DNA of 64,000 bases from an uncultured candidate division Zixibacteria bacterium. Its GTDB lineage: Bacteria > Zixibacteria > MSB-5A5 > GN15 > FEB-12. The stretch covers positions 896,001-960,000 of the forward strand of contig CAVTJJ010000004.1 in the NCBI GenBank assembly GCA_963735035.1, read 5' to 3'. Of this stretch, positions 12,089 to 58,654 are shown piece after piece; the stretch's first letter is position 1, and every line of letters starts with the position of its first letter. The position numbers and the translations under genes were made by a program. The notes beneath the pieces were generated by a model. It was not told where the DNA came from. It was given only the letters and a program-made list of their open reading frames with translations, and did not search any database.

Positions 12089-12117
12089 TTGCATGATTAT
12101 GGTGCAGTGAGTATACT
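12089..12117 (+). promoter_or_regulatory. Sigma70-type promoter of paralog P0
   Basis: TTGCAT-17 nt-TATACT, followed by an AAGGAG RBS before ATG 12171. Confidence 0.55.
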
Positions 12118-12170
12118 AAATCACGCGCAACTAGGATAAATGCCCTTCGCTGCCCGACAAGGAGTTAGAT

Positions 12171-15100
12171 ATGATTGCCCGGGAGACTTGGTGTCGCCTT
12201 GCGACATTTTATGTCACTTTGTGTCTGGCCGCGACAGTGCTTAGTGCAGCCGTCTTGGCGGCAGACAATTCTATTCCCCCCGAACGCGTTACCCAATTCA
12301 ATCTCAATCCCGCCCTTGGCCTGAATAGGTCGGAGGTCGCCGATTCGGACCGCGGTGTGGTGTCGACAGGGGCATCCGGTAGTCGCCGCCCGGTTGGCTC
12401 GGCGGTTTCGACCGACGCCGGTATCGGGAAAGGGGAGAGTGTCGATCTGACCTGGGACGACGCCCAGTACACTACTGGTCACGGCCGCCACATTAGCCAC
12501 TGGTGGAATGGCCAGTATGGCATTGACGCTGCGGTGAGTGTTCACTTTGCCTATCGTGATTTGATCGACTCAACCGCCAGTAACCGGATCTATTACTCCG
12601 GCTACAACGCATACGATGCCTTGAACGGAGTCTGGCCCAGGGGGGTGGAAACAGGCTGTGATCTTCAGGATTCGGATCCCCTCGGTTGGGGCGACATCCC
12701 GAGCCTGGACATCATGCCCAATGGACGGGCGGTGATGGCCGGTATGTCGGCGCTTTATCGTACCATGCCCGGTGGCGGCAGCTTGTACGATAACATGGTT
12801 TTCTATCAGGGAAGCGAATTCGGCTGCACCTACGATCCGCGCACCAATCTCAACGTTACCTGGATTGACAGCAGCGTTTATCGCCCCAGGTTCATGGTGA
12901 GGTCCGACGGGACTTATTCGCGCACCCCTCAGGTAGTTAGCCAGTGGGATGGTACCAATACGATTGTCCATCTGCTCCTGGGAGAAGAATCCCCCGGCAC
13001 GATGCTGAACGGCGACGCCTATGTTTCTGGTCTTCCGTACTATTCATTTGTCTATTTCCGTAAGGTTGGTGAAACATCTGGTAGCGGCACGTGGAGCGCG
13101 GGTCAGATCATCGATTCGCTCTGGTTCTCCTGGGCATCCATGGCGGCCGCGCCTTACCCCTACACCGGTGTGGCGATTACGTATACTAATCCAAGCTACT
13201 ATGGGGCTCTCTTAGAGAACGAACACGATCTGGACGTCTGGTGCCGGGAGTCGTTCGATCGCGGCATCTCGTGGGCCAGTGCCTACAGTGTGACCAATTA
13301 CGCGAACGCTATCGCCGGGGATCCGAAACACTTCACGGCCTGGCTGGAAACGCAGGCAATGTTCACCACTGATGGAAAGCTCAACGTGGTTTGGACCGCC
13401 AAGCCGACTTTCGAAGATCCCTATTTCGACGGCTTCAACTGGACCGACTACGATGAGAACATCTACCACTGGGAAAAGACCAACGGCAGCGGTGTGCCGG
13501 GTGTCGGCGACGTAGTCAAGGTGGCCAACGGTAATTTCAACGACGGGGGCGACTACATCACGGGGAGTTTCAATACTCTCCACTGCGGTTTCGGCGGCAG
13601 TAACGCCGGGTATATCGCCAACATCAATCTCGCCGAGTGCGACGGCAAGCTCTATTGTGTTTGGAATCAGATTCATGAACGAGCTAATAACGCCGATTGG
13701 CGCCGCGCCGGCACTCAGCCGATGCCGGGTGTGCTGGACGACTGCTCTTATACCGGCAACCGTCAGGCGATGGCCAACTGGGAGATCATGATGTCGGTGA
13801 AGTCTCTGACCGACGGGACATTCTGGGACAACGCCCGCAATATCACTAATACCTATACTCCTAACTGTGGGGTGGCCGGTGATCCGCTGGCTCAGGGCGT
13901 CTGTGGCAGCGAATACAAGCCGACGGTTGAGAAATACGGTCTGGATGAGACCGGCCTGTCGCTCAACTGGCCTGCGGCGACCACGGTCGACCCCACGGCC
14001 GACTGGGAAACGCCCTATGCCGGATCATGGTACCTGAACCTGCAGTATCTCGACGATCAGTTCCCCGGACCGGCGTACTGGGGTCGTACGAACCCGCCGG
14101 CCACGCTCAATTCGATCAAGTGGATTCGCCTCGCCTGTGTGGAGCCGGTCTACGCGCCGCAAATTTCCTTGGTCCCGACAAGCGTCGACTGGCCGTTGTG
14201 GGTGCAACTCGGTAATAGCCGCAATTTTGCCGTGACCGTAGTTAACGACGGAAACCTTGCCCTCAATGTCACCGAAATCGGGTTTGATGACAACGGCGGG
14301 GGCTGGCTGGGTGCATCGGTAGCTACCCTGACGGTCCCGGCCGGGGTCGGCAATACCCGAACGTTTAATATTGTAGTCAACGCCGGCGCTCTGGCCACGA
14401 CTCAGTGGCTCGACGGTTCAGTCTGGTTGAAATCTGACGCGGTAAACAACGATTCGCTGTCCATCCCGATTCATATTCTGGCCGCCGCCGATGTCGAGTC
14501 CGTGGCGTGGGATACGGTTATGTCGCATCAGTATATGTTCGATCAGTTCTTTGAGCCGGTGGGCGAGTGCGTGGCACTTGCAGTCTCCAACTATGGTGAG
14601 ATGGGATGGCAGGGGCGCGGCTCGGTAAATCTGGACTATCGCGAGTCGGGTGAGGAGTGCGGCGCCCGTGACGCCGACGCAATCTATCTCAAGTCCGGCT
14701 CACCGTTCGCAATCCTGGCGACCAGCTCGACGGGAGTGGGCGCCGAGCTGACCTGCTCCTATATGGATCCGAACCAGGCCGACCCGAACGGTTGGGATCC
14801 GACTCCGGCCAACGGGGGGATCAGAAGCGGGACCTATGCCAATCGATATGATTCGGTGTACACGGGAAAATTTGTCAACCGTGACACAACTATCGCTATG
14901 GAACAGGTCTTCTATGCCCCGCGGTCGAGTACACCGGCGACTTCGACTATCAATTTCGTGATCTGCAACACCTGGTTCTATTCGGCTGACGGGCTCCCGC
15001 ATAATCATTTGACGGTCGGCAATGTGATCGACTGGAATGTGCCGTCGGACAGCGCATCGAGCAACACGGCGGGAGTATCCAGCGCTGGATTCGTCTATGC

Positions 15101-17732: not shown

Positions 17733-17821
17733 GGAGAGGTGGCCGAGCGGTCGAAGGCGTCGGTCTCGAAAACCGATGTGCCCTTCGGGCACCCTGGGTT
17801 CGAATCCCAGCCTCTCCGCCA
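17733..17821 (+). tRNA. tRNA-Ser(CGA)
   Basis: GGAGAGG/CCTCTCC acceptor stem, D-arm TGGCCGAGCGGTCGAAGGC, anticodon arm TCGGT-CTCGAAA-ACCGA, long variable arm GTGCCC-TTCG-GGCAC, GGTTCGAATCC T-loop and encoded CCA. Confidence 0.97.
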
Positions 17822-45595: not shown

Positions 45596-46063
45596 GCCCC
45601 CAATATATGCTTACCCCCCTCAAGCATCAATCTGCAATTTCGGACGCTATTGTAGCTCATTCCCGCCCCCTTTTTGAAACTGACCCACTACCAATCATCT
45701 AATTGGCTTGACGAAATTGGTTTTTATTCGTTTCTTTGATATTGAGAAGGACTGAACAATCGCCCCGTTCGATTGTGGCTCCATTCGAGATAGGTCGAAC
45801 CGGCGCTTGGGCTACTTCGCTTTATTGTACACACTAACGAATCACGGCACCGTACAAGTTGCAAATTGATAAGTACGATAGGTTGAACTATCGACAAAAT
45901 GGAATTCAGGCTTTGTCTGACATCAAGAGAGGAGGCGTATCTACCGATTGTGTCTGGTCGACTGTCCGCAACCTGGATCTGATCGGCGCGGCGGGATCTT
46001 TCCGAGCCGTCAGAGGCAGGCGCGCGGAAAACGAGAAGATTTACTCGAAAGGAAATTGGACTA

Positions 46064-49000
46064 ATGAAGCGACTTCTTGTACTGACATCGCTGTCGGCTC
46101 TGTTGCTATTGATGTTGTCCGCCGCGGCAGCCGCTCGTAGCAGCACCAGGGCTGACCTTGAAGACTCCAAACGATCGGCCGATATCGGCCAGTTTAATCT
46201 TGCCGGGTCTCGTCCCTTGATGGGAAAAGAAGAACCGATGTCGTCTAACCACGTCCCGGCTCAAGCCGGTCGAGTGGTCAAACGGCCGGTGGGTAGCTCC
46301 CAGTCTCCCGAGGCCGGCATTGGAGTAGGTGTGAGCGTGGCGCTCACTTTTGACGACGGACAATACGGATTTCCGATCGGCCGCCATGTCAGCCATTACT
46401 GGAATGGCGAGGTAGGCGAGACGGTTCAAGCCGGTGTGCACTTTGCCTATGAACTGTGCTCCGACACCGTGCCCGGCAATGCAATAGCTTCCCCGATCAT
46501 TTCCGGATACAACGTTTACGACGCGACCGTCACCTCAGGCAACTGGCCTCGCGGCCAGGATTTGGGCTGCGGTCTGCAATCGGCCGATACAGCGGGAGCC
46601 GGGAAGTGGGTCAATCTCGACGTTCTGGGGAACCAGAATGCCGTCATGACCGCAACAACTTCCTTCTTCCGCCCCCTCCGGCCGGCGGGCGACAATATGT
46701 TATTCTTTCAGGGGGCTCAGTTCAACTGCACTTACGATCCCCGGACTTCCCTGAACACTACTTTCATTGACTCGACCGTAGCTACCGGTTACCGGGCCAA
46801 CTTCTCCAATCCGGGCGTAGGTAACTACAGCGTCCAGCCCGAGGTTGCCACGCAGTTCAACGGCTCTACTACGATTACGCACGTGCTGATCGGTGAAAGC
46901 GAAACCGTGGCCGGTCCAGCGGGTAACGACTCTTACGTTACCGCTGCGGAGTATCGTATTTTCCAGTACTACCGTAAGACGGGTAATACGTCTGGGGGAA
47001 GCTGGGGCACCGGCAAGATCATTGATAGCGTTATGGATGTGTACGGCACCAACGGGGTCACCCTGGCAACGTCACCCAATTCCGGTAAAGTGTGCGTCTC
47101 ATACTCCAACCCGGGATATTGGGGGTGTCGTCTTGACGGCGATAATGGACAGTACGATACCGATGTCTTTTACCGTGAATCTCTTGACTACGGTCTGACT
47201 TGGAATCCGAAAGTAAACATTACGACGTACCAGAACGCGATCGCAGGCGATCCCAAGCACTACAAGGCCTGGGTCGAATCACCGGCGCTGTACGATGCCA
47301 ACGACGATCTTCATATTATTTGGACCGGCACCCGGACCTCGGCCGATCCTTATTTCGACGGCTACAACTGGAACGATTTCGACACCGATATCTACCACTG
47401 GGCCCGTTCGTCGAATGAAATTGTCAAGTTGGCGAAGGGCACTTACCTGAATGATGACATGCTGACCGGTTCCATCAACACTCTTCATTGCGGTTTTGGC
47501 GGCGTCATGTCAGGGTACATTGCCTTTATCTGGTTGTCGGAATGCGATGGCAAGCTGTATTGCGTCTGGAATCAGATGCACGAGCTGGCCAATCATGGCG
47601 ATTACACTACGACACCTTCTCTCCTCGAGGATTGTGCCTACACCGGCAGTACGCGCAGCAATGCCAACTGGGAGATTATGATGTCGGTCGCTCGCATAAA
47701 TTCTAGTTCGTTGTGGGATGCCGCCCGCCACGTTTCTGGAGCCGGAGCCGGAACTCATACTCCGAATTGCGGTCTGGCGGGTGATCCGCTGGCCGTCGGT
47801 GGCCAGTGTGGTAACGAATTCAAGCCTTCGGTCGAAAAGTATGGCTTGGATGAGACCGGTCTGGGTTTGACCTGGCCGGCCGCCTCGAAGGTTGACTTGA
47901 CCCCCGCGGGTCAGCCGGCCTACACCGGCGACTTCTACTTGAATATGGAGTACATGGACGATCAGTTCCCCGGATATTTTGTACAGGACCTGAACGGACG
48001 AAACGATGTCGGAACACTCAACTCCGAAAAGTGGGTCCGGTTGGCCTGTGTGAACCCGGTGGAAGCCTCTCAGATCAACATTTCTCCGAAGAGGCTGGAA
48101 TGGCCGCTGTGGGTGGCGCTTAATGCCAGCAATAACCTGACCATCACGGTTGTCAATGAGGGAAACGTCACGCTCAACGTTACCGAAATTGGGACCGCCG
48201 GCGGAAGCTGGCTGGACGTGAGTCAGCATCCCACCACAGGCAGCCCGTTCCAGGTTCCTGCGGGTGTTAACAACACCGCCAGCTTTGATGTGGTTGTCAA
48301 TGCGACTGGTATATCTCAAACCCAGTGGCTTGATGGCCAGGTCTGGCTGAAGTCGGATGCCGCCAACAATGACTCAATGGTGGTGCCGATTCATATTCTG
48401 GCCGCCGACAATGTCGAAGCGGTTCGCTGGGATACTGTAATGACCCACGCCAACATGTTTGACGAATTCTACGAGCCCACCGGCGAATGTATCGCTCTTG
48501 CGGTCGGTAACCTGGGCGAAGTCGGCTATGGTGCTTTCAGTCAAGGCAGTGTAAATCTTGACTACGCTGAGTCAGGCTTGGAATGTGGCACTCGCGCGCG
48601 TGACAAGCAGTACCTTATGAGTGGGACGGCCTTTACTCTTCTGGCGACCAATTCCTCGGGAGCCGGCGCCGAATTGACGACGGCATTCAACGATCCGAAT
48701 CAGGCAGACGAGGCCGGGTTCGATCCGACATCCGCCAAGGGTTCCATCGGCGGCGGTCTGGCCGTCACCGGTGACTATGACTCTACCTACACCGGTCGGT
48801 TTGTAAACAAGGATACGACTATCGCCATGGAGCGGACTGTGTACGGTCCTCGGTTGACACCGTCCAATTCAGTTATCAATTTCATGGTTGTGTATACCAA
48901 GGTGTATTCGGCCGATGGCTTAGGCCACAATCACCTGACGGTTGGAAACGCCTGCGACTTCGACGTTCCGGCCGATAGCCCGCCGAACAACAACTCGGCG

Positions 49001-49774
49001 GTCTCGACAACCGGTGGATTCGTGTACTTTCAGGGTACCGACACTACCGGAGGTACACCCTGCCAGACGAACTTGAACCGCTTCGCGACCGAAGCGTTTG
49101 GCGGCGGTTACACATCGGCCGAGTTGACCGGCAGCCCGTGCGCCAATAACACGACATTCTACGGCTCCAATTCGCTGTATCAGTTGATAATGGAGGACAC
49201 CACTCATCTCCGGAATGGTACTCCGCTGGTGCCGAGTCAGCCGAACCCGCTGGTCTGGTGGGCCGAAACCGGTATCGGCGGTACTAACGCTTCCGCACTC
49301 CAGGACACTGACCTGGCGTTGATCACGACCTACGTTCGGGATTATAACCTGGGCGCATCCGATACCCTGCACTACTGGACAATCCTGTCCACCGTGCGCA
49401 ATGGCACACTGGCCAATCTGGAGAGCCAGGTTGCCTACGCCAAGAGCTGGTATATGGGCACGGTTCGTGATTGTTTTGGCCCACCGCCTTGCTGCACGGA
49501 AAGAGTCGGCAACGCTAACGGTACTGGCGGCGAGACTCCGACGATCGGTGACATCAGCGTGATGATCGATGCCAAGTTCATCACGGGTGCCTGTATCGGC
49601 TCCGGTGCGGGCGCCAACATCGTTTGTCTAGGTGAAGCTGACATGAACCTGTCCGGTGGTCAACACCCGACCTGTGGATCCATTACGATCGGTGACATTT
49701 CGCTGTTGATCGACTGTCTGTTCATTACAGGCGAGCCGCCGTTCGTTCGCAGCACCTGTATGTCAATAGACTAA
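46064..49774 (+). CDS. Large secreted protein, paralog P1 (Asp-box/propeller-like, Ig-like, C-terminal dockerin-like)
   Basis: Signal peptide, SLDYGLTW Asp-box, TVVNEGNVTLNV Ig-like segment, CC..VGNANGTGGETPTIGDISVMIDAKF..; colinear with P0, P2 and P3. Confidence 0.92.
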   Translation: MKRLLVLTSLSALLLLMLSAAAAARSSTRADLEDSKRSADIGQFNLAGSRPLMGKEEPMSSNHVPAQAGRVVKRPVGSSQSPEAGIGVGVSVALTFDDGQYGFPIGRHVSHYWNGEVGETVQAGVHFAYELCSDTVPGNAIASPIISGYNVYDATVTSGNWPRGQDLGCGLQSADTAGAGKWVNLDVLGNQNAVMTATTSFFRPLRPAGDNMLFFQGAQFNCTYDPRTSLNTTFIDSTVATGYRANFSNPGVGNYSVQPEVATQFNGSTTITHVLIGESETVAGPAGNDSYVTAAEYRIFQYYRKTGNTSGGSWGTGKIIDSVMDVYGTNGVTLATSPNSGKVCVSYSNPGYWGCRLDGDNGQYDTDVFYRESLDYGLTWNPKVNITTYQNAIAGDPKHYKAWVESPALYDANDDLHIIWTGTRTSADPYFDGYNWNDFDTDIYHWARSSNEIVKLAKGTYLNDDMLTGSINTLHCGFGGVMSGYIAFIWLSECDGKLYCVWNQMHELANHGDYTTTPSLLEDCAYTGSTRSNANWEIMMSVARINSSSLWDAARHVSGAGAGTHTPNCGLAGDPLAVGGQCGNEFKPSVEKYGLDETGLGLTWPAASKVDLTPAGQPAYTGDFYLNMEYMDDQFPGYFVQDLNGRNDVGTLNSEKWVRLACVNPVEASQINISPKRLEWPLWVALNASNNLTITVVNEGNVTLNVTEIGTAGGSWLDVSQHPTTGSPFQVPAGVNNTASFDVVVNATGISQTQWLDGQVWLKSDAANNDSMVVPIHILAADNVEAVRWDTVMTHANMFDEFYEPTGECIALAVGNLGEVGYGAFSQGSVNLDYAESGLECGTRARDKQYLMSGTAFTLLATNSSGAGAELTTAFNDPNQADEAGFDPTSAKGSIGGGLAVTGDYDSTYTGRFVNKDTTIAMERTVYGPRLTPSNSVINFMVVYTKVYSADGLGHNHLTVGNACDFDVPADSPPNNNSAVSTTGGFVYFQGTDTTGGTPCQTNLNRFATEAFGGGYTSAELTGSPCANNTTFYGSNSLYQLIMEDTTHLRNGTPLVPSQPNPLVWWAETGIGGTNASALQDTDLALITTYVRDYNLGASDTLHYWTILSTVRNGTLANLESQVAYAKSWYMGTVRDCFGPPPCCTERVGNANGTGGETPTIGDISVMIDAKFITGACIGSGAGANIVCLGEADMNLSGGQHPTCGSITIGDISLLIDCLFITGEPPFVRSTCMSID

Positions 49775-49832: not shown

Positions 49833-49867
49833 AGCGGCCATCCCACATAGGGATGGCCGCTCTTTTT
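49833..49867 (+). terminator. Intrinsic terminator (shared by P1-P3)
   Basis: AGCGGCCATCCC-ACATA-GGGATGGCCGCT followed by CTTTTT. Confidence 0.85.
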
Positions 49868-49999: not shown

Positions 50000-50028
50000 T
50001 TGACAAACAGGCTCTTAGATGCCATTAT
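50000..50028 (+). promoter_or_regulatory. Sigma70 promoter of P2
   Basis: TTGACA-17 nt-CATTAT with extended TG; conserved upstream of P3. Confidence 0.7.
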
Positions 50029-50037
50029 TACATAGTA

Positions 50038-50318
50038 GGTTCTCAATTGTTATGACACCTTCGCACTGCTTCGGAAGGACCTCGGAAGAGGTTAGGCCGG
50101 TCCTTGTCCATCTTTGCCTTGCCACCCTGTCTTCAGGGATCCACGGCTGACTAATTCATATATCGGACTAATATGCTGAGTCTTGCGACCCGCCGTCGCG
50201 AGGCCGGCTTTAGAATGCTGGAATACTGCTTTATTGGACACGCCAGCCATTGACGCTCCGTCGGCTAACGCCTCGGAAGAAAATTGGTGGGTCTTAATGA
50301 TAGTTGGACGAGTGAACC
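50038..50318 (+). ncRNA. Putative structured 5' leader RNA, copy A (no family recognised)
   Basis: Near-identical to 54431-54713; long-range closing stem plus several internal hairpins; most differences fall in loops or preserve pairing. Confidence 0.6.
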
Positions 50319-50471
50319 ATTTATCGAGGAGGTAATCCACACGAGGAGAGTAACGACTGCGCGGGACAGGCAGACACCTCGGAGTTGCCGCGTGGGAAGA
50401 TCAACTGGGGTAGGTTTCAGTGTCCAAGACACTGAAGCTGGAATAGGCTAATCTCTTGAAAGGAAACTAGC

Positions 50472-53400
50472 ATGACGAGAAAAGCACTAATTACGTTGTG
50501 CGTAGCAGTGCTGTTGACCGGGTTGCTGACTTTGTCGGCGTGGGCGGCCACGAATACTAAGGTCGACATTGCTGACGGCAAGCAGCTCGACAAGATTAAC
50601 AGCTTCAATGTTGGTCCATATCCGATGGAAGACCGTGCGGCCTTCGAAGAAGATGTGGCATTGCAAAGCACGGCTTCTTCTTCTGGCGCCCTCCGCGTAC
50701 CGGTCGGTTCGGCCGCTTCGCCGAACGTTGGCACCGGTGTGGGCGTCAGCATCGACCTGACCTGGCATGACGCGCAGTGGACTCGTGGCCAAGGTCGCCA
50801 GATCGCTCACTGGTGGAACGGCGCTACCGATGAAACCGCCGAAGTGAGCGTTCATTTTGCTTACATGACTATGCCGGATAGCCTCGAAACCACCGCCCCG
50901 TATACCAACACCGGCTACAACGTGTATGACGCCACGGTGACGTCGGGTAACTGGCCGCGCGGCCAGGATATCGGCTGCGATCTGCAGTCGGCTGACACGA
51001 TCGGACAGGCTGTCGCCGCAAGCATGGATATGACGTATAACGGTCGCGCCGTCATTGCTTCACAGGGCCAACATTTCCGCACCAAAGCCTCCGGTGCCGG
51101 TGCCGGCACACGTCTGAGCAGTAACTTCATCTACTATCAGGGTTCCGAATTCAACTGCACTTACGATCCGCGTTCGAATTTGAACGTTACCTGGATTGAT
51201 TCTACTGTCTACCGGCCGTTGTTCCTGGATCAGACCGCCGGGAGTTATTCGCGTGAGCCTCAGGTCAAGACACAGTGGGATGGCACCAATACGGTTGTGC
51301 ACCTGCTGTTGGGCGAGAATACTGCCGGTGTCACCCTGACCGGTGATGCCTACGCCGATGATCTCTCTTCATACAAGACCTGGAGTTACTTCCGCAAGGT
51401 CGGCAATACGTCCGCCGGTACCTGGAGTTCAGGCCAGATAATTGACTCGATCTGGTTCTCATGGACAGAACTTGCCGCTGCGGCATACCCGAATACAGGT
51501 GTGGCGGTGGTTTATGTCAACCCGTCGTACTACGGGTGTCTGCTTAACAACGGCGCCGATTTGGATGTCTGGGCTCGTGAGTCGTTCAACCGTGGTGTGA
51601 CCTGGCAGCCGGCCTATAGTGTTACCAACTACACCAACGCTATCGCCGGAGACCCGAATCACTTTACTTGCTGGTTGGAAGCCGGTTGTATGTTCGACAG
51701 TGAGGGTGACCTTCATGTTTACTGGACGGCCAAGCCGACCTCGGCCGATCCGTATTTCGACGGCTTTAACTGGAGTGATTTCGACGAGAACCTGTATCAC
51801 TGGGAAAAGACCAACGATGGCGCTGTCCCGGGTATTGGCGATGCCGTCAAGGTTGCCAATGGCAACTTCATGAACGACGACATGCTGACCGGTTCGATGA
51901 ACACCTTCCATTGTGGTTTTGGCGGCAGTAACGCTGGTTACCTCGCCTTCTCTACGATGGGTGAGTGCGATGGCAAGTTGTATATGGTCTGGTCGCAGAT
52001 TCACGAGCGTGCCAACCGGATGGCTTGGCGCAACGCTGCGACGCAGCCGGCTCCGGGCGTCCTGGACGACTGCTCCTACACGGGCAATCGGTATGCCATG
52101 GCCAACTGGGAGATCTTGATGTCGGTGGCTCAGCTCGGTTCTTCCACTCTGTGGGACGCCGCGCGTAACATCACCAACACCTATACTCCGAACTGCGGTT
52201 TGGCGGGCGATCCCGATGCCCAGGGGCCATGCGGTTCCGAATGGAAACCGTCAATTGAGCGTCAGGCCCTCGATGAGACCGGTCTGACTCTGACCTGGCC
52301 GGTCGCGGCCGCAGTCGACATGTCCCCGACGCACGACTATGCTGCTGGTCATTACTTGAACATGGAATATATGGACGACCAGTACCCAGGCCCGACCAAC
52401 TGGAGCGATCGCACCAATCCTCCTTCCACTCTGAACTCTGAGAAGTGGGTTCGTCTGGCCTGCGTGGAGCCGGTTGAGGCTTCGCAGATTAACGTAATTC
52501 CTAAATCAGTAGCGTGGCCGCAGTGGGTGGAGCTTGGCACGACCAAGAACTTTACCATTACGGTCGTGAACGACGGTAACGTGACTTTGAACGTTACTGA
52601 GATCGGCACGGCGGGCGGTTCCTGGCTGGGTGTGTCACAGCATCCGACAATCGGCAGCCCGTTCGCGGTAACGGCCGGTGTGGTTCGCACCCGGACGTTC
52701 GACTTGATTGCCAATGCCACCGCGCTGTCTTCGACCCAGTGGCTGGACGGCGAGATCTGGTTGAAGTCTGATGCCGCCAACAGCGATTCAATTTCGGTCG
52801 CGATTCACCTCCTGGCTGCGGCCAATGTCGAGGCCACGAAGTGGGATACGGTTACGACCCATGCCTATATGTTCGACGCGTTCTTTGAGCCGGCAGGCGC
52901 CTGCGTAGCTCTGGGCGTTGGTAACGACGGTGACCTCGGATGGGGTGCCGGAACCAGCGGAAGTATCAATCTTGATTATCGGGAATCCAATCTCGAGTGC
53001 GGAACCCGCCAGCGCGACGCCATGTATTTGGCGAGCGGCTCGGCCTTTACCTTGATGGCAACCAGTTCGACTGGTACCGGCGCGGAATTGACTCAGGTCA
53101 CAAACGACGCCAACCAGGCGGACGAAACCGGTTTCGACCCGACCCCGGAAAAGACCATGACCGGCGGTCTGGCGGCGAGCGGCAAGTACGACTCGACTTA
53201 CACGGGTAAGTTCGTGAACCGTGACACGACCATCGCTTTTGAGCGGGTAGTGTACGGTCCGCGTTCTGCCACTCCGGCAACTTCCACCATCAATTTCGTG
53301 ATTGTCCACACCTGGGTCTATTCGGCTGACGGTGCGGCCCACAATCACGTCACCATTGGTGATGTTCGTGACTGGGACGTCCCGGCCGACAGCGTTCCGC

Positions 53401-54185
53401 TGAACACGACCGGTGTTTCCAGTGCTGGTTTCGTTTACGTACAGGGTACTGACACGGTTCTTCACACTGCGTGTCAGACGAACTTGAACCGGTTTGCCAC
53501 TGAGGCTTTTGGTGGCGGTTACACCAAGGCTCAGTTCAATGCCGACCCGTGCGCGAACGATTCCACCGGCTATTTTGGTTTCAGCGCAGCCGACCAGTTG
53601 ATCATGGTCGACACGACGCATTATCGCAATGGCACGCCTCTCGTCCCGGTCCAGCCGGATCCGTCTCGTTGGTGGGATGTGACGAAGGTGCCGGGCCTGA
53701 ACGCCGATGCTTCGACTCAGGATCAGGCCGTCTGGTTGACCTACAAGCAGGATTACAACTTGTTGGCCAGCGACACGCTGCACTATTGGACCGTTATGAC
53801 TACGGTTCGCAATGGTTCGTTGTCTGATCTGGAAGCTCAGGTTGCGTATGCCAAGAACTGGTACAAGGAAATTCGAGGCTGCGTACCCATAAATCCGGCC
53901 TGCTGTATAGGGAAGGTCGGCAACGCCAACGGTACAGGCGGCGAGACTCCGACGATCGGTGACATCAGCGTGATGATCGATGCCAAGTTCATCACGGGTG
54001 CCTGTATTCCTTCGGGTCCGGGTGCCAACATCGTTTGTCTAGGTGAAGCTGACATGAACCTGTCCGGTGGACTTCACCCGACCTGTGGATCCATTACGAT
54101 CGGTGACATTTCGCTGTTGATCGACTGTCTGTTCATTACAGGCGAGCCGCCGTTCGTTCGCAGCAACTGTATGTCGGTGGACTAG
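50472..54185 (+). CDS. Large secreted dockerin-tagged protein, paralog P2
   Basis: 1,237-aa ORF with GAAAGGA RBS; same architecture as P1. Confidence 0.93.
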   Translation: MTRKALITLCVAVLLTGLLTLSAWAATNTKVDIADGKQLDKINSFNVGPYPMEDRAAFEEDVALQSTASSSGALRVPVGSAASPNVGTGVGVSIDLTWHDAQWTRGQGRQIAHWWNGATDETAEVSVHFAYMTMPDSLETTAPYTNTGYNVYDATVTSGNWPRGQDIGCDLQSADTIGQAVAASMDMTYNGRAVIASQGQHFRTKASGAGAGTRLSSNFIYYQGSEFNCTYDPRSNLNVTWIDSTVYRPLFLDQTAGSYSREPQVKTQWDGTNTVVHLLLGENTAGVTLTGDAYADDLSSYKTWSYFRKVGNTSAGTWSSGQIIDSIWFSWTELAAAAYPNTGVAVVYVNPSYYGCLLNNGADLDVWARESFNRGVTWQPAYSVTNYTNAIAGDPNHFTCWLEAGCMFDSEGDLHVYWTAKPTSADPYFDGFNWSDFDENLYHWEKTNDGAVPGIGDAVKVANGNFMNDDMLTGSMNTFHCGFGGSNAGYLAFSTMGECDGKLYMVWSQIHERANRMAWRNAATQPAPGVLDDCSYTGNRYAMANWEILMSVAQLGSSTLWDAARNITNTYTPNCGLAGDPDAQGPCGSEWKPSIERQALDETGLTLTWPVAAAVDMSPTHDYAAGHYLNMEYMDDQYPGPTNWSDRTNPPSTLNSEKWVRLACVEPVEASQINVIPKSVAWPQWVELGTTKNFTITVVNDGNVTLNVTEIGTAGGSWLGVSQHPTIGSPFAVTAGVVRTRTFDLIANATALSSTQWLDGEIWLKSDAANSDSISVAIHLLAAANVEATKWDTVTTHAYMFDAFFEPAGACVALGVGNDGDLGWGAGTSGSINLDYRESNLECGTRQRDAMYLASGSAFTLMATSSTGTGAELTQVTNDANQADETGFDPTPEKTMTGGLAASGKYDSTYTGKFVNRDTTIAFERVVYGPRSATPATSTINFVIVHTWVYSADGAAHNHVTIGDVRDWDVPADSVPLNTTGVSSAGFVYVQGTDTVLHTACQTNLNRFATEAFGGGYTKAQFNADPCANDSTGYFGFSAADQLIMVDTTHYRNGTPLVPVQPDPSRWWDVTKVPGLNADASTQDQAVWLTYKQDYNLLASDTLHYWTVMTTVRNGSLSDLEAQVAYAKNWYKEIRGCVPINPACCIGKVGNANGTGGETPTIGDISVMIDAKFITGACIPSGPGANIVCLGEADMNLSGGLHPTCGSITIGDISLLIDCLFITGEPPFVRSNCMSVD

Positions 54186-54226
54186 AATCGACCTCGCAAA
54201 GTCTTTGACTTTGTAGGGTGTGAATA

Positions 54227-54261
54227 AGCGGCCATCCCACATAGGGATGGCCGCTCTTTTT
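54227..54261 (+). terminator. Intrinsic terminator
   Basis: Same hairpin and T-tract as at 49833. Confidence 0.85.
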
Positions 54262-54392
54262 GTGCCAACCGGTACGGAGCGCTATCTGAAATCAGGTTCC
54301 GTCGGTATTCCAGTACTTCACACAGAAATATTTTCCACACGGTTCGAACCCGCGTGGCGAGCGGAATTCCAGCCTCTGGATAGATTAAGTGC

Positions 54393-54421
54393 TTGACAAA
54401 CAGGCCGGTAGATGCCATTCT
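54393..54421 (+). promoter_or_regulatory. Sigma70 promoter of P3
   Basis: TTGACA-17 nt-CATTCT with extended TG. Confidence 0.7.
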
Positions 54422-54430
54422 TAAGCAGTA

Positions 54431-54713
54431 GGTTCTCGATTGTTTTGACACCTTTGCGCTGCTTCAGAAGGACCTCAGAAGAGGTTAGGCCGGTCCCTGT
54501 CCATCTTTGCCTTGCCACCCTGTCTTCAGGGATCCACGGCTGACTAATTCATATATCGGACTAATATGCTGAGTCTTGCGACCCGCCGTCGCGAGGCCGG
54601 CTTTAGAATGCTGGAATACTGCTTTATTGGACACGCCAGCCATCGACCCTCCGTCGGCTAGTGCCACCGGAAGAAAAATTGGTGCGTCTTAAGGACAGTT
54701 GGACGAGTGAACC
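54431..54713 (+). ncRNA. Putative structured 5' leader RNA, copy B
   Basis: Second copy of 50038-50318 with the same predicted pairing. Confidence 0.6.
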
Positions 54714-54865
54714 TTTAGCGAGGAGGTAATTCACGCCCTTAGAGTAACATGACTCGTGATGCCAGGTGTTAATTTGCAGGCATCCGTGAGGTATTCAAAA
54801 GGAGAATAGGTTCTCGCGTCTGGAGTGCGGGGACTAAAATCAGCTAATCTTGAAAGGAAACGAGC

Positions 54866-57800
54866 ATGACGAGGAAAGCACTACTTACGTTGTGCGTAGC
54901 GGTGCTGTTGTCAGGGTTGCTGACTTTGTCGGCATGGGCGGCCACGAATACTAAGGCCGATATCGCTGACAGCAAGCAGCTCGATATGATTAACAGCTTC
55001 AATGTCGGTCCGTATCCGGTTGAGTATCGGCAAGCCACCACTGAGATGGGCTTGGAGCCCGTCACCCCGGCCTCTGGCGCTATTCGCATGCCGGTCGGTT
55101 CGGCCGCTTCGCCGAACGTCGGCACCGGTGTGGGCGTCAGTATCGATCTGACCTGGGACGATGCCCAGTGGACCTGGGGCAAGGGCCGCCAGATTGCTCA
55201 CTGGTGGAACGGCGCTACCGATGAAACCGCCGAAGTGAGCGTTCACTTTGCTTATCGGGCCAGCCCGGACACTGTCACCGGATATCCGTTTGGAAATACC
55301 GGCTACAACGTGTACGACGCTACCGTGACGTCGGGTAACTGGCCGCGCGGCCAGGACATCGGCTGCGATCTTCAGTCGGCCGATACCCTGGGTACCGGCA
55401 GCAGCCCGAGTATGGACGTGACCTTCAACGGTCGTGCCGTAATTGGCACCCTGGCTACGCATTTCCGCAGCATCGGCACTGACCGTCTGTATGATAACTT
55501 CATTTACTATCAGGGTTCCGAATTCAACTGCACTTACGATCCCCGTTCGAACCTGAACGTTACCTGGGTCGATTCGACTATGTATCGGCCGCTCATGATG
55601 CAGAACGTTGCGGGTACCTACTCGCGCGATCCGATAGTCAAGACTCAGTGGGATGGAACTAATACGATCACTCATTTGCTCCTGGGTGAAAACGTGGCTG
55701 AAGCCACCAATTTGACCGGTGATGCTTACGTAACCGATCTCGGCTACTATACCTGGACTTATTTCCGCAAAGTCGGCAATACGTCCGCCGGTACCTGGAC
55801 CAACGGCCGGATCATCGACTCGATCTGGTTTGTGTGGACGGAACTGGCTGCCGCCCCGTACCCGAATACGGGCGTGGCGGTGGTTTACACCAACCCGACG
55901 TACTATGGCGCGCTGTTGGAAAACGGCGGTGACATGGACGTCTGGGCTCGCGAGTCGTACGACCGTGGTATTAACTGGGCGCCTTCTTACAGCGTTACCA
56001 AGTACACCAACGCCCTGGCCGGTGATCCGAACCACTTTACGGCCTGGTTGGAAGCCGGCTGTATGTTCGACAGTGAAGGCGATCTTCACGTTTACTGGAC
56101 GGCCAAGCCGACCTCGGCTGATCCGTATTTCGATGGCTTCAACTGGAATGATTTCGACGAGAATCTGTATCACTGGGAAAAGACCAACGACGCTGCCGCC
56201 GTGGGCCTGGGCGATGCCGTCAAGGTTGCCAATGGCAACTTCATGAATGACGACATGCTGACCGGTTCGATGAACACCTTCCATTGTGGTTTTGGCGGAA
56301 GTAACGTTGGTTACCTCGGTTACTCCACGATGGGTGAGTGCGATGGCAAGTTGTATCTGGTCTGGTCGCAGATTCACGAGCGTGCCAATCGGTACCCGTG
56401 GCGCGACGCTGCGACGCAACCGGCTCCGGGCGTACTGGACGACTGCTCCTACACGGGCAATCGGTATGCCATGGCTAACTGGGAGATCTTGATGTCGGTG
56501 GCTCAGATCGGTTCTTCCACCCTGTGGGACGCCGCGCGCAACATCACCAACACCTATACTCCGAACTGCGGTTTGGCGGGCGATCCCGATGCCCAGGGAC
56601 TATGCGGTTCCGAATGGAAACCGTCGATCGAGCGTCAGGCTCTTGATGAGACCGGTCTGACTCTGACCTGGCCGGTCGCGGCCGCAGTCGACATGTCCCC
56701 GACGCACGACTATGCTGCTGGTCATTACTTGAACATGGAATATATGGACGACCAGTTCCCAGGTCCGTACGCTTGGGGGACGGGACGTACCAATCCTCCC
56801 GGTACTCAGAACTCTGAGAAGTGGATTCGTCTGGCTTGCGTCGAGCCGGTTGAGGCTTCGCAGATCGACGTAATGCCGGAGAACATCGCGTGGCCGCAGT
56901 GGGTGGAGCTTGGCACGACCAAGAACTTTACCATTACGGTCGTGAACGACGGTAACGTGACTTTGAACGTTACTGAGATCGGCACGGCGGGCGGTTCCTG
57001 GCTGGGTGTGTCACAGCATCCGTCGGTTGGCAGCCCGTTCACGGTGACGGCCGGTGTGGTTCGCACCCGGACGTTCGACTTGATCGCCAATGCCACCGCG
57101 TTGTCTTCGACTCAGTGGCTTGATGGCGAGATCTGGTTGAAGTCTGATGCCGCCAACATCGATTCAATTGCGGTCAAGGTTCACATCCTGGCCGCGGCCA
57201 ATGTTGAGGCCACGAAGTGGGATACGGTTACGACCCACGCCTATATGTTCGATGCGTTCTTTGAACCGGTAGGCGCTTGCGTAGCTCTGGGCGTTGGTAA
57301 CGACGGTGACCTCGGATGGGCCGCCGGAACCAGCGGAAGTATCAACCTTGATTATCGGGAATCCGGTCTCGAGTGCGGTACTCGTCAACGCGACGCGATG
57401 TATTTGTCGAGCGGCTCGACCTTTACCTTGATGGCGACCAGTTCGACTGGAACCGGCGCCGAGTTGACGCAGGTCACGGGCGACGCCAACCAGGCGGACG
57501 AAACCGGTTTCGACCCGACCCCGGAAAAGACCATGACCGGCGGTCTGGCGGCGAGCGGCAAGTACGACTCGACTTACACGGGTAAGTTCGTGAACCGTGA
57601 CACGACCATCGCTTTTGAGCGGGTAGTGTACGGTCCGCGTTCTGCCACTCCGGCAACTTCCACCATCAATTTCGTGATTGTCCACACCTGGGTCTATTCG
57701 GCTGACGGTGCGGCCCACAATCACGTCACCATTGGTGATGTTCGTGACTGGGACGTCCCGGCCGACAGCGTTCCGCTGAACACGACCGGTGTTTCCAGTG

Positions 57801-58561
57801 CTGGTTTCGTTTACGTACAGGGTACTGACACGGTTCTTCACACTGCGTGTCAGACGAACTTGAACCGGTTTGCCACTGAGGCTTTTGGTGGCGGTTACAC
57901 CAAGGCTCAGTTCAATGCCGATCCTTGCGCGAACGATTCCACCGCCTATTTTGGTTTCAGCGCAGCCGACCAGTTGATCATGGTCGACACGACGCATTAT
58001 CGCAATGGCACGCCTCTCGTCCCGTTCCAGCCGGATCCGTCTCGTTGGTGGGATGTGACGAAGGTACCGGGCCTGAACGCTGATGCCTCGACTCAGGATC
58101 AGGCCGTCTGGTTGACCTACAAGCAGGATTACAACTTGTTGGCCAGCGACACGCTGCACTATTGGACCGTTATGACTACGGTTCGCAATGGTTCGTTGTC
58201 TGATCTGGAAGCTCAGGTTGCGTATGCCAAGAACTGGTACAAGGAAATTCGAGGCTGCGTACCCATAAATCCGGCCTGCTGTATAGGGAAGGTCGGCAAC
58301 GCCAACGGTACTGGCGGCGAGACTCCGACGATCGGTGACATCAGCGTGATGATCGATGCCAAGTTCATCAGCGGTGCCTGTATATCTTCGGGTCCGGGTG
58401 CCAACATCGTTTGTCTAGGTGAAGCTGACATGAACCTGTCCGGTGGACTTCACCCGACCTGTGGATCCATTACGATCGGTGACATTTCGCTGTTGATCGA
58501 CTGTCTGTTCATTACAGGCGAGCCGCCGTTCGTTCGCAGCACCTGTATGTCAATAGACTAA
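54866..58561 (+). CDS. Large secreted dockerin-tagged protein, paralog P3
   Basis: 1,231-aa ORF, closest to P2; the last ~1 kb is nearly nucleotide-identical to P2. Confidence 0.93.
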   Translation: MTRKALLTLCVAVLLSGLLTLSAWAATNTKADIADSKQLDMINSFNVGPYPVEYRQATTEMGLEPVTPASGAIRMPVGSAASPNVGTGVGVSIDLTWDDAQWTWGKGRQIAHWWNGATDETAEVSVHFAYRASPDTVTGYPFGNTGYNVYDATVTSGNWPRGQDIGCDLQSADTLGTGSSPSMDVTFNGRAVIGTLATHFRSIGTDRLYDNFIYYQGSEFNCTYDPRSNLNVTWVDSTMYRPLMMQNVAGTYSRDPIVKTQWDGTNTITHLLLGENVAEATNLTGDAYVTDLGYYTWTYFRKVGNTSAGTWTNGRIIDSIWFVWTELAAAPYPNTGVAVVYTNPTYYGALLENGGDMDVWARESYDRGINWAPSYSVTKYTNALAGDPNHFTAWLEAGCMFDSEGDLHVYWTAKPTSADPYFDGFNWNDFDENLYHWEKTNDAAAVGLGDAVKVANGNFMNDDMLTGSMNTFHCGFGGSNVGYLGYSTMGECDGKLYLVWSQIHERANRYPWRDAATQPAPGVLDDCSYTGNRYAMANWEILMSVAQIGSSTLWDAARNITNTYTPNCGLAGDPDAQGLCGSEWKPSIERQALDETGLTLTWPVAAAVDMSPTHDYAAGHYLNMEYMDDQFPGPYAWGTGRTNPPGTQNSEKWIRLACVEPVEASQIDVMPENIAWPQWVELGTTKNFTITVVNDGNVTLNVTEIGTAGGSWLGVSQHPSVGSPFTVTAGVVRTRTFDLIANATALSSTQWLDGEIWLKSDAANIDSIAVKVHILAAANVEATKWDTVTTHAYMFDAFFEPVGACVALGVGNDGDLGWAAGTSGSINLDYRESGLECGTRQRDAMYLSSGSTFTLMATSSTGTGAELTQVTGDANQADETGFDPTPEKTMTGGLAASGKYDSTYTGKFVNRDTTIAFERVVYGPRSATPATSTINFVIVHTWVYSADGAAHNHVTIGDVRDWDVPADSVPLNTTGVSSAGFVYVQGTDTVLHTACQTNLNRFATEAFGGGYTKAQFNADPCANDSTAYFGFSAADQLIMVDTTHYRNGTPLVPFQPDPSRWWDVTKVPGLNADASTQDQAVWLTYKQDYNLLASDTLHYWTVMTTVRNGSLSDLEAQVAYAKNWYKEIRGCVPINPACCIGKVGNANGTGGETPTIGDISVMIDAKFISGACISSGPGANIVCLGEADMNLSGGLHPTCGSITIGDISLLIDCLFITGEPPFVRSTCMSID

Positions 58562-58618: not shown

Positions 58619-58654
58619 AAGCGGCCATCCCAACTGGGATGGCCGCTTTCTTTT
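58619..58654 (+). terminator. Intrinsic terminator
   Basis: AAGCGGCCATCCCA-AC-TGGGATGGCCGCTT followed by TCTTTT. Confidence 0.85.

Follow-up and report, generated by a model that had tools for sequence, protein, structure and literature searches.

The 64,000-nt stretch of DNA analysed here (hereafter ‘the window’; positions 896,001 to 960,000 of the forward strand of contig CAVTJJ010000004.1, assembly GCA_963735035.1) comes from an uncultured bacterium of the candidate division Zixibacteria and contains three tandem paralogous genes, each encoding a protein of ~1235 amino acids (aa) with a signal peptide and dockerin-like C-terminal repeats (genes 1 to 3; Table 1). Between promoter and ATG, genes 2 and 3 have ~435 nt devoid of a conserved open frame, a length that follows from the position of the promoter, and these untranslated leaders are the subject of the present analysis. 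A first-pass annotation of the same DNA had singled out a block of about 280 nt in each of them (copy A before gene 2, copy B before gene 3) as a new structured RNA. We are confident that the two blocks are instead the distal two-thirds of the 5’ untranslated leaders of two genes for secreted surface proteins, that they have been duplicated and gene-converted, and that the downstream half of the leader represents a hitherto undescribed leader family. Judged from sequence comparison, it is this downstream half that is conserved and under selection, that is, 50229-50471 in copy A and 54622-54865 in copy B.

None of the three proteins matches a Pfam or NCBIfam family, and a sequence search with the product of gene 2 (P0001) identified no relative in the PDB. 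In the protein atlas, P0001 belongs to an unnamed cluster in which 32% of the members carry Dockerin_1. Relatives of P0001 are present in 58 of the 60 related genomes searched, and its secreted protein family has at least seven near-full-length copies in the source genome. Both blocks are preceded by a conserved promoter, just as the first-pass annotation had it, which would place the transcription start of copy A near 50036, a position deduced from the promoter alone. The promoter element CTTGACAAA is kept in all five aligned same-genus leaders and likewise in L137, the single diverged homologue of the block, which was found in a metagenome pattern scan and has the same promoter type and boxes. 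Because the upstream gene ends in each case in an intrinsic-terminator-like hairpin, each leader copy heads its own transcription unit; the hairpin sequence (AGCGGCCATCCC...GGGATGGCCGCT plus T run) is common to all three genes. A further paralogue, starting at ~12172 (window 12100-12180), has a short leader with an ordinary promoter and ribosome-binding site (RBS) and no decoy of the kind described below, so that the long leader is not universal within the protein family.

Table 1. Features of the leaders and of the genes that they precede (positions in the window; SD, Shine-Dalgarno).
Feature	Position	Strand	Remarks
Leader of gene 1	45930-45951	+	decoy AGGAGG 134 nt before ATG, then CCGATTGT box
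Gene 1	46064-49774	+	first of the tandem trio
Intrinsic-terminator-like hairpin ending gene 1	49833-49861	+	12-bp stem, then T run
Sigma-70-type promoter, copy A	50000-50028	+	TTGACA-17-CATTAT; TG before the -10 hexamer
Block of the first-pass annotation, copy A	50038-50318	+	lineage-specific distal 5’ untranslated region (50038-50228) plus first two conserved boxes
Distal hairpin kept in L137	50175-50208	+	GCUG-A-GUCUUGCGAC / CCGCC loop / GUCGCGAGGC-CGGC; outer pairs read from a three-row alignment
CUUUAUUGGA box	50229-50238	+	5’ edge of conserved leader, ~100 nt before decoy SD; variants in further genera
GGACGAG box	50306-50312	+	in most same-genus and g58 alignment rows; not in any search pattern
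Decoy SD GGAGGUAAUCC	50328-50338	+	144 nt before ATG; no start codon at initiation distance
GAGUAAC box	50348-50354	+	UAAC starts 16-17 nt after GGAGGU; can pair with decoy 3’ flank (GU.AUUC with GAGU.AC)
Hairpin Pa	50357-50395	+	sequence differs per leader, position kept
Hairpin Pb	50413-50439	+	helix with best covariation support
True RBS GAAAGGAA	50458-50465	+	before ATG at 50472
Gene 2 (P0001, 1237 aa)	50472-54185	+	signal peptide, dockerin-like C-terminal repeats
Terminator-like hairpin after gene 2	54227-54255	+	same hairpin as after gene 1; from scan
Promoter, copy B	54393-54421	+	TTGACA-17-CATTCT; by reading, below promoter-scan threshold
Block of the first-pass annotation, copy B	54431-54713	+	92% identical to copy A
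Conserved leader, copy B	54622-54868	+	R1 match 54614-54868, 95.2 bits; R2 match 54718-54868, 129.8 bits
Boxes of copy B		+	CUUUAUUGGA 54622-54631; decoy GGAGGU 54722-54727; GAGUAAC 54742-54748; RBS 54852-54859; ATG 54866
Gene 3 (1231-aa paralogue)	54866-58561	+	88.7% amino-acid identity to gene 2
Terminator-like hairpin after gene 3	about 58621-58648		slightly changed, differs in loop

Sensitive alignment of the regions upstream of the paralogues in the source genome and two same-genus genomes reveals a series of islands common to them: the promoter, GCUUUAUUGRA, GGACGAG, GGAGGU-UAAC, a variable hairpin region and, before the ATG, UCUUGAAAGGAAA. Within the conserved leader the elements are arranged in the order CUUUAUUGRA, GGACGAG, an extended Shine-Dalgarno-like site that usually has no start codon behind it (the ‘decoy’), GAGUAAC, two hairpins, a GGGAACU-type box and the true RBS. 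The leader of gene 1, with its CCGATTGT box, suggests a second leader subtype. In the two same-genus genomes, leaders belonging to more distant paralogues have this box as well (L036, L038, L039, L040, L043); taken alone, it is not rarer than chance in the window, where it matches five times and where 21 of 100 shuffles have at least five matches. By eye, CUUUAUUG seems to pair well with the nucleotides immediately upstream of the decoy in two g58 rows; in the other rows this pairing comprises only 3-6 bp and is nearly invariant. An attempt to read CUUUAUUGAAC as the -35 element of a second promoter was given up, since no -10-like hexamer lies 17 nt downstream of it in the rows that were read by eye.

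The leader is widely distributed among relatives of the source organism. Composite patterns of the boxes give 17 matches at the level of the family (12 of 108 genomes) and 16 at the level of the order (12 of 160 genomes), with no match of the reversed control in either set, and each of the 16 order-level matches precedes an open reading frame (ORF) whose N-terminus resembles a signal peptide, always of one type. A sequence-only profile built from 16 leaders (R1) matches 77 of the 108 family genomes, representing 36 of 47 genera, and many of its matches extend from the decoy as far as the ATG. When the phylum was sampled evenly, R1 had matches in 46 of 54 genomes from family f1, in 4 of 15 from the sister family f4, and in none of 81 from 15 other families. 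Many R1 matches adjoin the 5’ ends of P0001 homologues that had been found independently by protein search (coordinates were compared for about three dozen cases); examples are G014:C1, with a match at 2147231-2147452 next to a gene at 2143718-2147221, G016:C1, with 233973-234135 next to 234147-237554, and G028:C74, where this occurs twice. A BLAST-level DNA search with the leader found no match in 60 relatives, which reflects a limit of sensitivity, for box patterns and profile later found homologues. A metagenome scan with a looser pattern returned 88 stretches; of the 80 fetched, 75 look random and five have further features, namely GAG before UAAC, a GGACGA box, and an RBS together with an open signal-peptide frame. 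The search of the window against Rfam (release 15) that had been proposed at the outset gave no match at gathering score apart from one tRNA gene (window 17733-17818), and under permissive settings (E up to 10) only three weak matches at 11.6-12.4 bits, compared with cut-offs of 46.7-57.6. Likewise, we found no description of the leader in the literature on Zixibacteria searched in combination with dockerin, riboswitch or RNA motif. The leader is of the cis-regulatory kind that Rfam curates but matches none of its families; as an RNA family it is new, although its kind is known.

This leader is built around the decoy. The 3’ tail of the source genome’s 16S rRNA is GGAUCACCUCCUUUCU, and an extended complement of that tail, GGAGGU(G/A)(A)AUYC, is present in the leaders. 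The predicted duplex of the decoy with 16S rRNA amounts to -15.1 kcal/mol in copy A and -13.6 kcal/mol in copy B; over the 33 leaders that span decoy to ATG (out of 40 alignment rows) its mean is -19.4 kcal/mol, versus -11.1 kcal/mol for the true RBS. In these 33 leaders the decoy is located 134-196 nt before the ATG, and 29 of them have no ATG, GTG or TTG within 3-13 nt after GGAGG. Orphan GGAGGT sites 80-230 nt before a long ORF with its own RBS are found only seven times in the source genome, and four of these belong to the P0001 family. Outside the window, on the minus strand at G000:C4:611297, an orphan SD of the extended type (GGAGGTGAT) is located 164 nt upstream of a signal-peptide ORF of 877 aa and may represent a further use of the decoy arrangement. 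In leaders from other genera (L168, L169, L179, L180, L188), the AAGGG of the decoy has a potential pairing partner in a CCCUU-type stretch located 30-45 nt upstream of the decoy, which, going by the folding model, is a possible anti-decoy element; in L168, L169 and L180 the decoy is predicted to be unpaired with a probability of 0.01-0.08.

Downstream of the decoy, comparison among leaders supports two covarying hairpins, Pa and Pb. For a MAFFT alignment of seven same-genus leaders from decoy to ATG, RNAalifold finds three helices, for which 87.6% of the cells pair (33-52% when the partners are slid); nine of the 23 pairs have two-sided changes, a number reached by 3 of 500 shuffles, and the covariation score of 0.377 is reached by none of 500. 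The helix of Pb alone comprises 11 pairs, six of them with two-sided, compensatory changes, and 88% of its cells are paired. A structured model, R2, aligned 34 matches from many genera (33 distinct rows), and in the alignment fitted to it 20 of the 23 pairs have two-sided changes and 88.3% of the cells pair. In the same fitted alignment, the small helix between the 3’ flank of the decoy and GAGUAAC has 94.4% of its cells paired, with UA replaced by CG in four rows and, in eight rows, a C.A mismatch at one pair; such pairing would explain the fixed spacing between decoy and GAGUAAC. Folding 38 leaders singly yields in most of them a hairpin soon after GAGUAAC and a second hairpin before the GGGAACU box, even though the hairpin sequences are unrelated between genera. 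RNAalifold applied to the sequence-only alignment of 40 rows returned just three pairs, the variable hairpins being out of register there.

We then have to account for the likeness of the two blocks. They are indeed nearly identical over the stretches first noticed (92%, with not a single difference across 50105-50250). This likeness is explained by duplication of a 4.4-kb gene unit and patchy homogenisation through gene conversion. Units 2 and 3 of the repeat are a mosaic, ranging from 51 to 100% identity in 100-nt windows; ~400 coding nucleotides are identical between genes 2 and 3 (53115-53514), and fourfold-degenerate sites of the two genes are 84.9% identical overall, at 0.61-1.00 per 100 codons and 1.00 in codons 900-999. 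The coding region behaves in the same way where its sites are nearly neutral, so that the leader’s identical tract of 146 nt is not exceptional. The leader itself is likewise a recombinant mosaic: in its distal part A and B are 92% identical and A and L137 66% (L137 being 66-67% identical to the block), whereas in the proximal part identity is 55% for A and B, 83% for B and L137, and 70% for A and a paralogue at G000:C4:162584 (162k). The ~130 nt before each ATG had been called largely unrelated, and copies A and B do agree there at only 55% (40% in the middle), but this region is part of the conserved leader.

The interpretation offered by the first-pass annotation was that 50038-50318 is an autonomous structured RNA of ~280 nt, that is, a riboswitch-like sensor, a stabilising domain or a processed small RNA, which is closed by a long-range stem and whose two copies are kept alike by selection on the fold. 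The proposed stems are present in both copies, the ends pair over long range in each, and all four substitutions in this closing stem keep pairing, including a double change from A-U to U-G; over all paired columns there are five such substitutions between A and B, one of them double. When L137 is added, 86.5% of the cells are paired (a value attained in 2 of 500 trials in which the 3’ letters were shuffled), four pairs have two-sided changes (9 of 500), and the three sequences give a weak signal of conserved structure. One hairpin, TCTTGCGAC/GTCGCGAGG, is truly conserved, being fully paired in A, B and L137 (9 of 9 pairs, with four one-sided changes and one two-sided change). The other eight of the nine proposed helices, however, have two to five broken pairs in L137 (2/5, 5/10, 2/5, 3/6, 2/5, 2/5, 2/4 and 2/3 in a three-row alignment). 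The end-to-end duplex, matched by 17 of 300 shuffles for A and 29 of 300 for B, amounts in L137 to -18.3 kcal/mol, which 263 of 300 shuffles equal or better. The minimum free energies (MFE) are unremarkable, at -96.0 kcal/mol for copy A (z -1.43; 18 of 200 dinucleotide shuffles fold as well) and -94.3 kcal/mol for copy B (z -0.53; 57 of 200), and the MFE fold of copy B, as first folded, lacks the closing stem. Moreover, same-genus leaders of other paralogues have unrelated sequence at the position of the block, and the identity of A and B is matched at synonymous coding sites. As gene conversion explains the likeness of A and B, no selection on a 280-nt fold is needed. A closed fold of 280 nt is thus not supported, and we regard an autonomous RNA of this extent as improbable. 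Most of the block is a lineage-specific spacer that has undergone gene conversion, and a single conserved hairpin lies within it. This hairpin was considered as an attenuator or terminator and rejected as such, there being no U run after it in A or L137. Further structure may exist in the distal block; a 5’-terminal helix, GGUUCU/AGGACC, with one compensatory change is a candidate read from the three-row alignment. The first-pass annotation had thus come upon a real, undescribed leader, but it singled out the wrong portion and did so on mistaken grounds. Its general idea of a new cis-acting leader tied to a surface-protein family is upheld by the silence of Rfam, the breadth of the R1 matches and the covarying hairpins; yet the conserved RNA coincides with the block over no more than the final ~90 nt of the latter, and it is the downstream hairpins that covary, whereas the closing stem of the block breaks in L137.

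Two alternatives concern the conserved leader itself. The main rival to a decoy role is that the leader serves as a binding platform for CsrA or another RNA-binding regulator, in which case its GGA boxes (GGACGAG, the GGAGG of the decoy and the GAAAGGA of the RBS) would be protein sites and binding at the last of them would repress translation and so tune how much surface protein is made. A CsrA-controlled leader of this type is reportedly that of the flagellin gene hag of B. subtilis, which is said to contain several GGA motifs with one placed over the true RBS. The present leader shares these traits, in that GGA is present in three of its conserved boxes, one of which overlaps the true RBS, and a csrA gene is present in the source genome (82.8 bits versus a 27-bit cut-off). 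In addition, GGACGAG can be drawn in a hairpin loop in two g58 leaders (two G083 copies, read by eye), and the alignment places GGA in the Pb loop of four of the seven same-genus leaders. What CsrA leaves unexplained is that the decoy is conserved beyond GGA, as a 10-12-nt complement of the 16S tail (GGAGGUGAAUCC type), and GGA in the loops of Pa or Pb is not conserved across genera; we therefore consider this alternative unlikely. Less probable still is that the decoy is a real RBS for a tiny upstream ORF, or for a non-canonical start, the translation of which controls the main gene. Such a reading would draw on the great strength of the SD, on the UAA held at fixed distance inside GAGUAAC and on the AUC, AUU or AUA that often follows GGAGGU. 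These AUY triplets, however, stand only 2-3 nt after GGAGGU, too close for initiation, and share no common frame with the UAA, while the four leaders that do have a start codon at initiation distance have no position in common. A 32-codon frame in the distal block fares no better, for its ATG is lost in copy B and four of five changes are non-synonymous.

We return to the decoy as a site for ribosomal subunits. In the mode of action that we consider most likely, the 3’ tail of 16S rRNA would be bound by the decoy, a 30S subunit would therefore sit on the leader without initiating, and the bound subunit together with the hairpins would shield the mRNA of a heavily expressed surface protein from decay that depends on the 5’ end. 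Alternatively, the decoy might be a loading, or standby, site for the true start 134-196 nt downstream. The variable distal block would then be a spacer, possibly one that is trimmed off, as in cry3A of Bacillus thuringiensis. A stabilising or ribosome-loading leader that works like the STAB-SD of that gene is the most likely role, yet a tentative proposal, and one that we would rate somewhat below even chances. More speculative still is the specific version in which an ultra-strong decoy, held in a small switchable helix with GAGUAAC and flanked by covarying hairpins, parks or loads 30S subunits 134-196 nt before the start, following a STAB-SD-like principle without RNase J and directed instead against RNase E/G, RNase Y or Rho; such a device might even help to choose which paralogue is expressed.

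As outlined in the review PMC4113751 (after Agaisse and Lereclus 1996 and Mathy et al. 2007), the STAB-SD of cry3A is an SD-like sequence to which 16S rRNA binds but from which no translation starts, and it protects the processed mRNA, in Bacillus by blocking the 5’-3’ exonuclease RNase J1; the transcript starts at -558 and its major end is at -129. The resemblance is fourfold: (i) an SD-like complement of 16S rRNA lies deep within a long leader (at about -129 of -558 in cry3A according to that account, and at -134 to -196 of ~435 nt here), (ii) the site does not direct initiation in cry3A and is predicted not to do so here, 29 of 33 leaders having no start codon at initiation distance, (iii) the site precedes a gene for a massively produced protein, high expression being presumed in our case, and (iv) the distal leader is dispensable or variable. 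The host is, on the other hand, a member of the Zixibacteria and not of the Firmicutes, and the decoy is embedded in a longer conserved leader, whose additional boxes and two covarying hairpins have no counterpart in STAB-SD. A second comparison is provided by the S-layer genes slpA of Lactobacillus acidophilus and L. crispatus, for which PMC3666127 describes long stabilising 5’ untranslated regions. Common to that description and our case, where length and structure are predicted, are a long, structured untranslated leader, a strong promoter and a gene for a secreted surface protein, again with high expression presumed here. However, the sequences are unrelated, the protein encoded here has no family match, so that an S-layer identity is only a comparison, and the Zixibacteria leader precedes more than one paralogue in a genome, with conservation that spans many genera.

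Several observations weigh against the reading that we favour. The invariance of the boxes arises in part by construction, as patterns and profiles were selected on them; the structure tested on the seven-leader alignment was derived from that same alignment; and the alignment of 33 rows was fitted to the R2 model, and gaps at Pa or Pb affect 13-22 of these rows. Energy support is modest, the mean z over 24 leaders being -1.10 (Pa), -0.89 (last 70 nt) and -0.43 (box region). Folding predictions have the decoy partly occluded, with a mean unpaired probability of 0.27 compared with 0.47 for the true RBS, and with values below 0.1 in 9 of the 33 leaders; in terms of the folding model, such partial occlusion would fit a regulated site and would count against a simple, always-open docking site. 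No RNase J was found in the source genome, which is 96.9% complete (best TIGR00649 score 24 bits versus a 400-bit cut-off), although RNase E/G and RNase Y were. Hence the Bacillus mechanism cannot apply literally, and on the RNase J feature the leader is not a STAB-SD as defined; protection of a similar kind against 5’-end-dependent endonucleases, or a standby role, would be the likeliest alternative. Finally, the distal block retains a weak signal of conserved structure when the columns of the three sequences are shuffled (consensus energy z -2.2, 3 of 150; structure conservation index 0.70 versus 0.647, 10 of 150), and the double change between A and B in the closing stem has no explanation other than chance. 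With these points taken into account, we lean, by a narrow preference, towards the combination of a leader family, gene conversion and a decoy role.

The leader provides a specific annotation marker for a large, uncharacterised family of surface proteins of Zixibacteria. The history of its distal part also carries a more general message: where gene conversion acts, the likeness of two paralogues within a single genome lends little support to an RNA structure. If the decoy holds ribosomal subunits, ribosome-mediated protection of 5’ ends, which has been described in Firmicutes together with RNase J, would extend to an uncultivated phylum with other decay enzymes, and more than 100 natural variants of the leader would become available for studying how the long leaders of very highly expressed surface proteins are maintained and translated.

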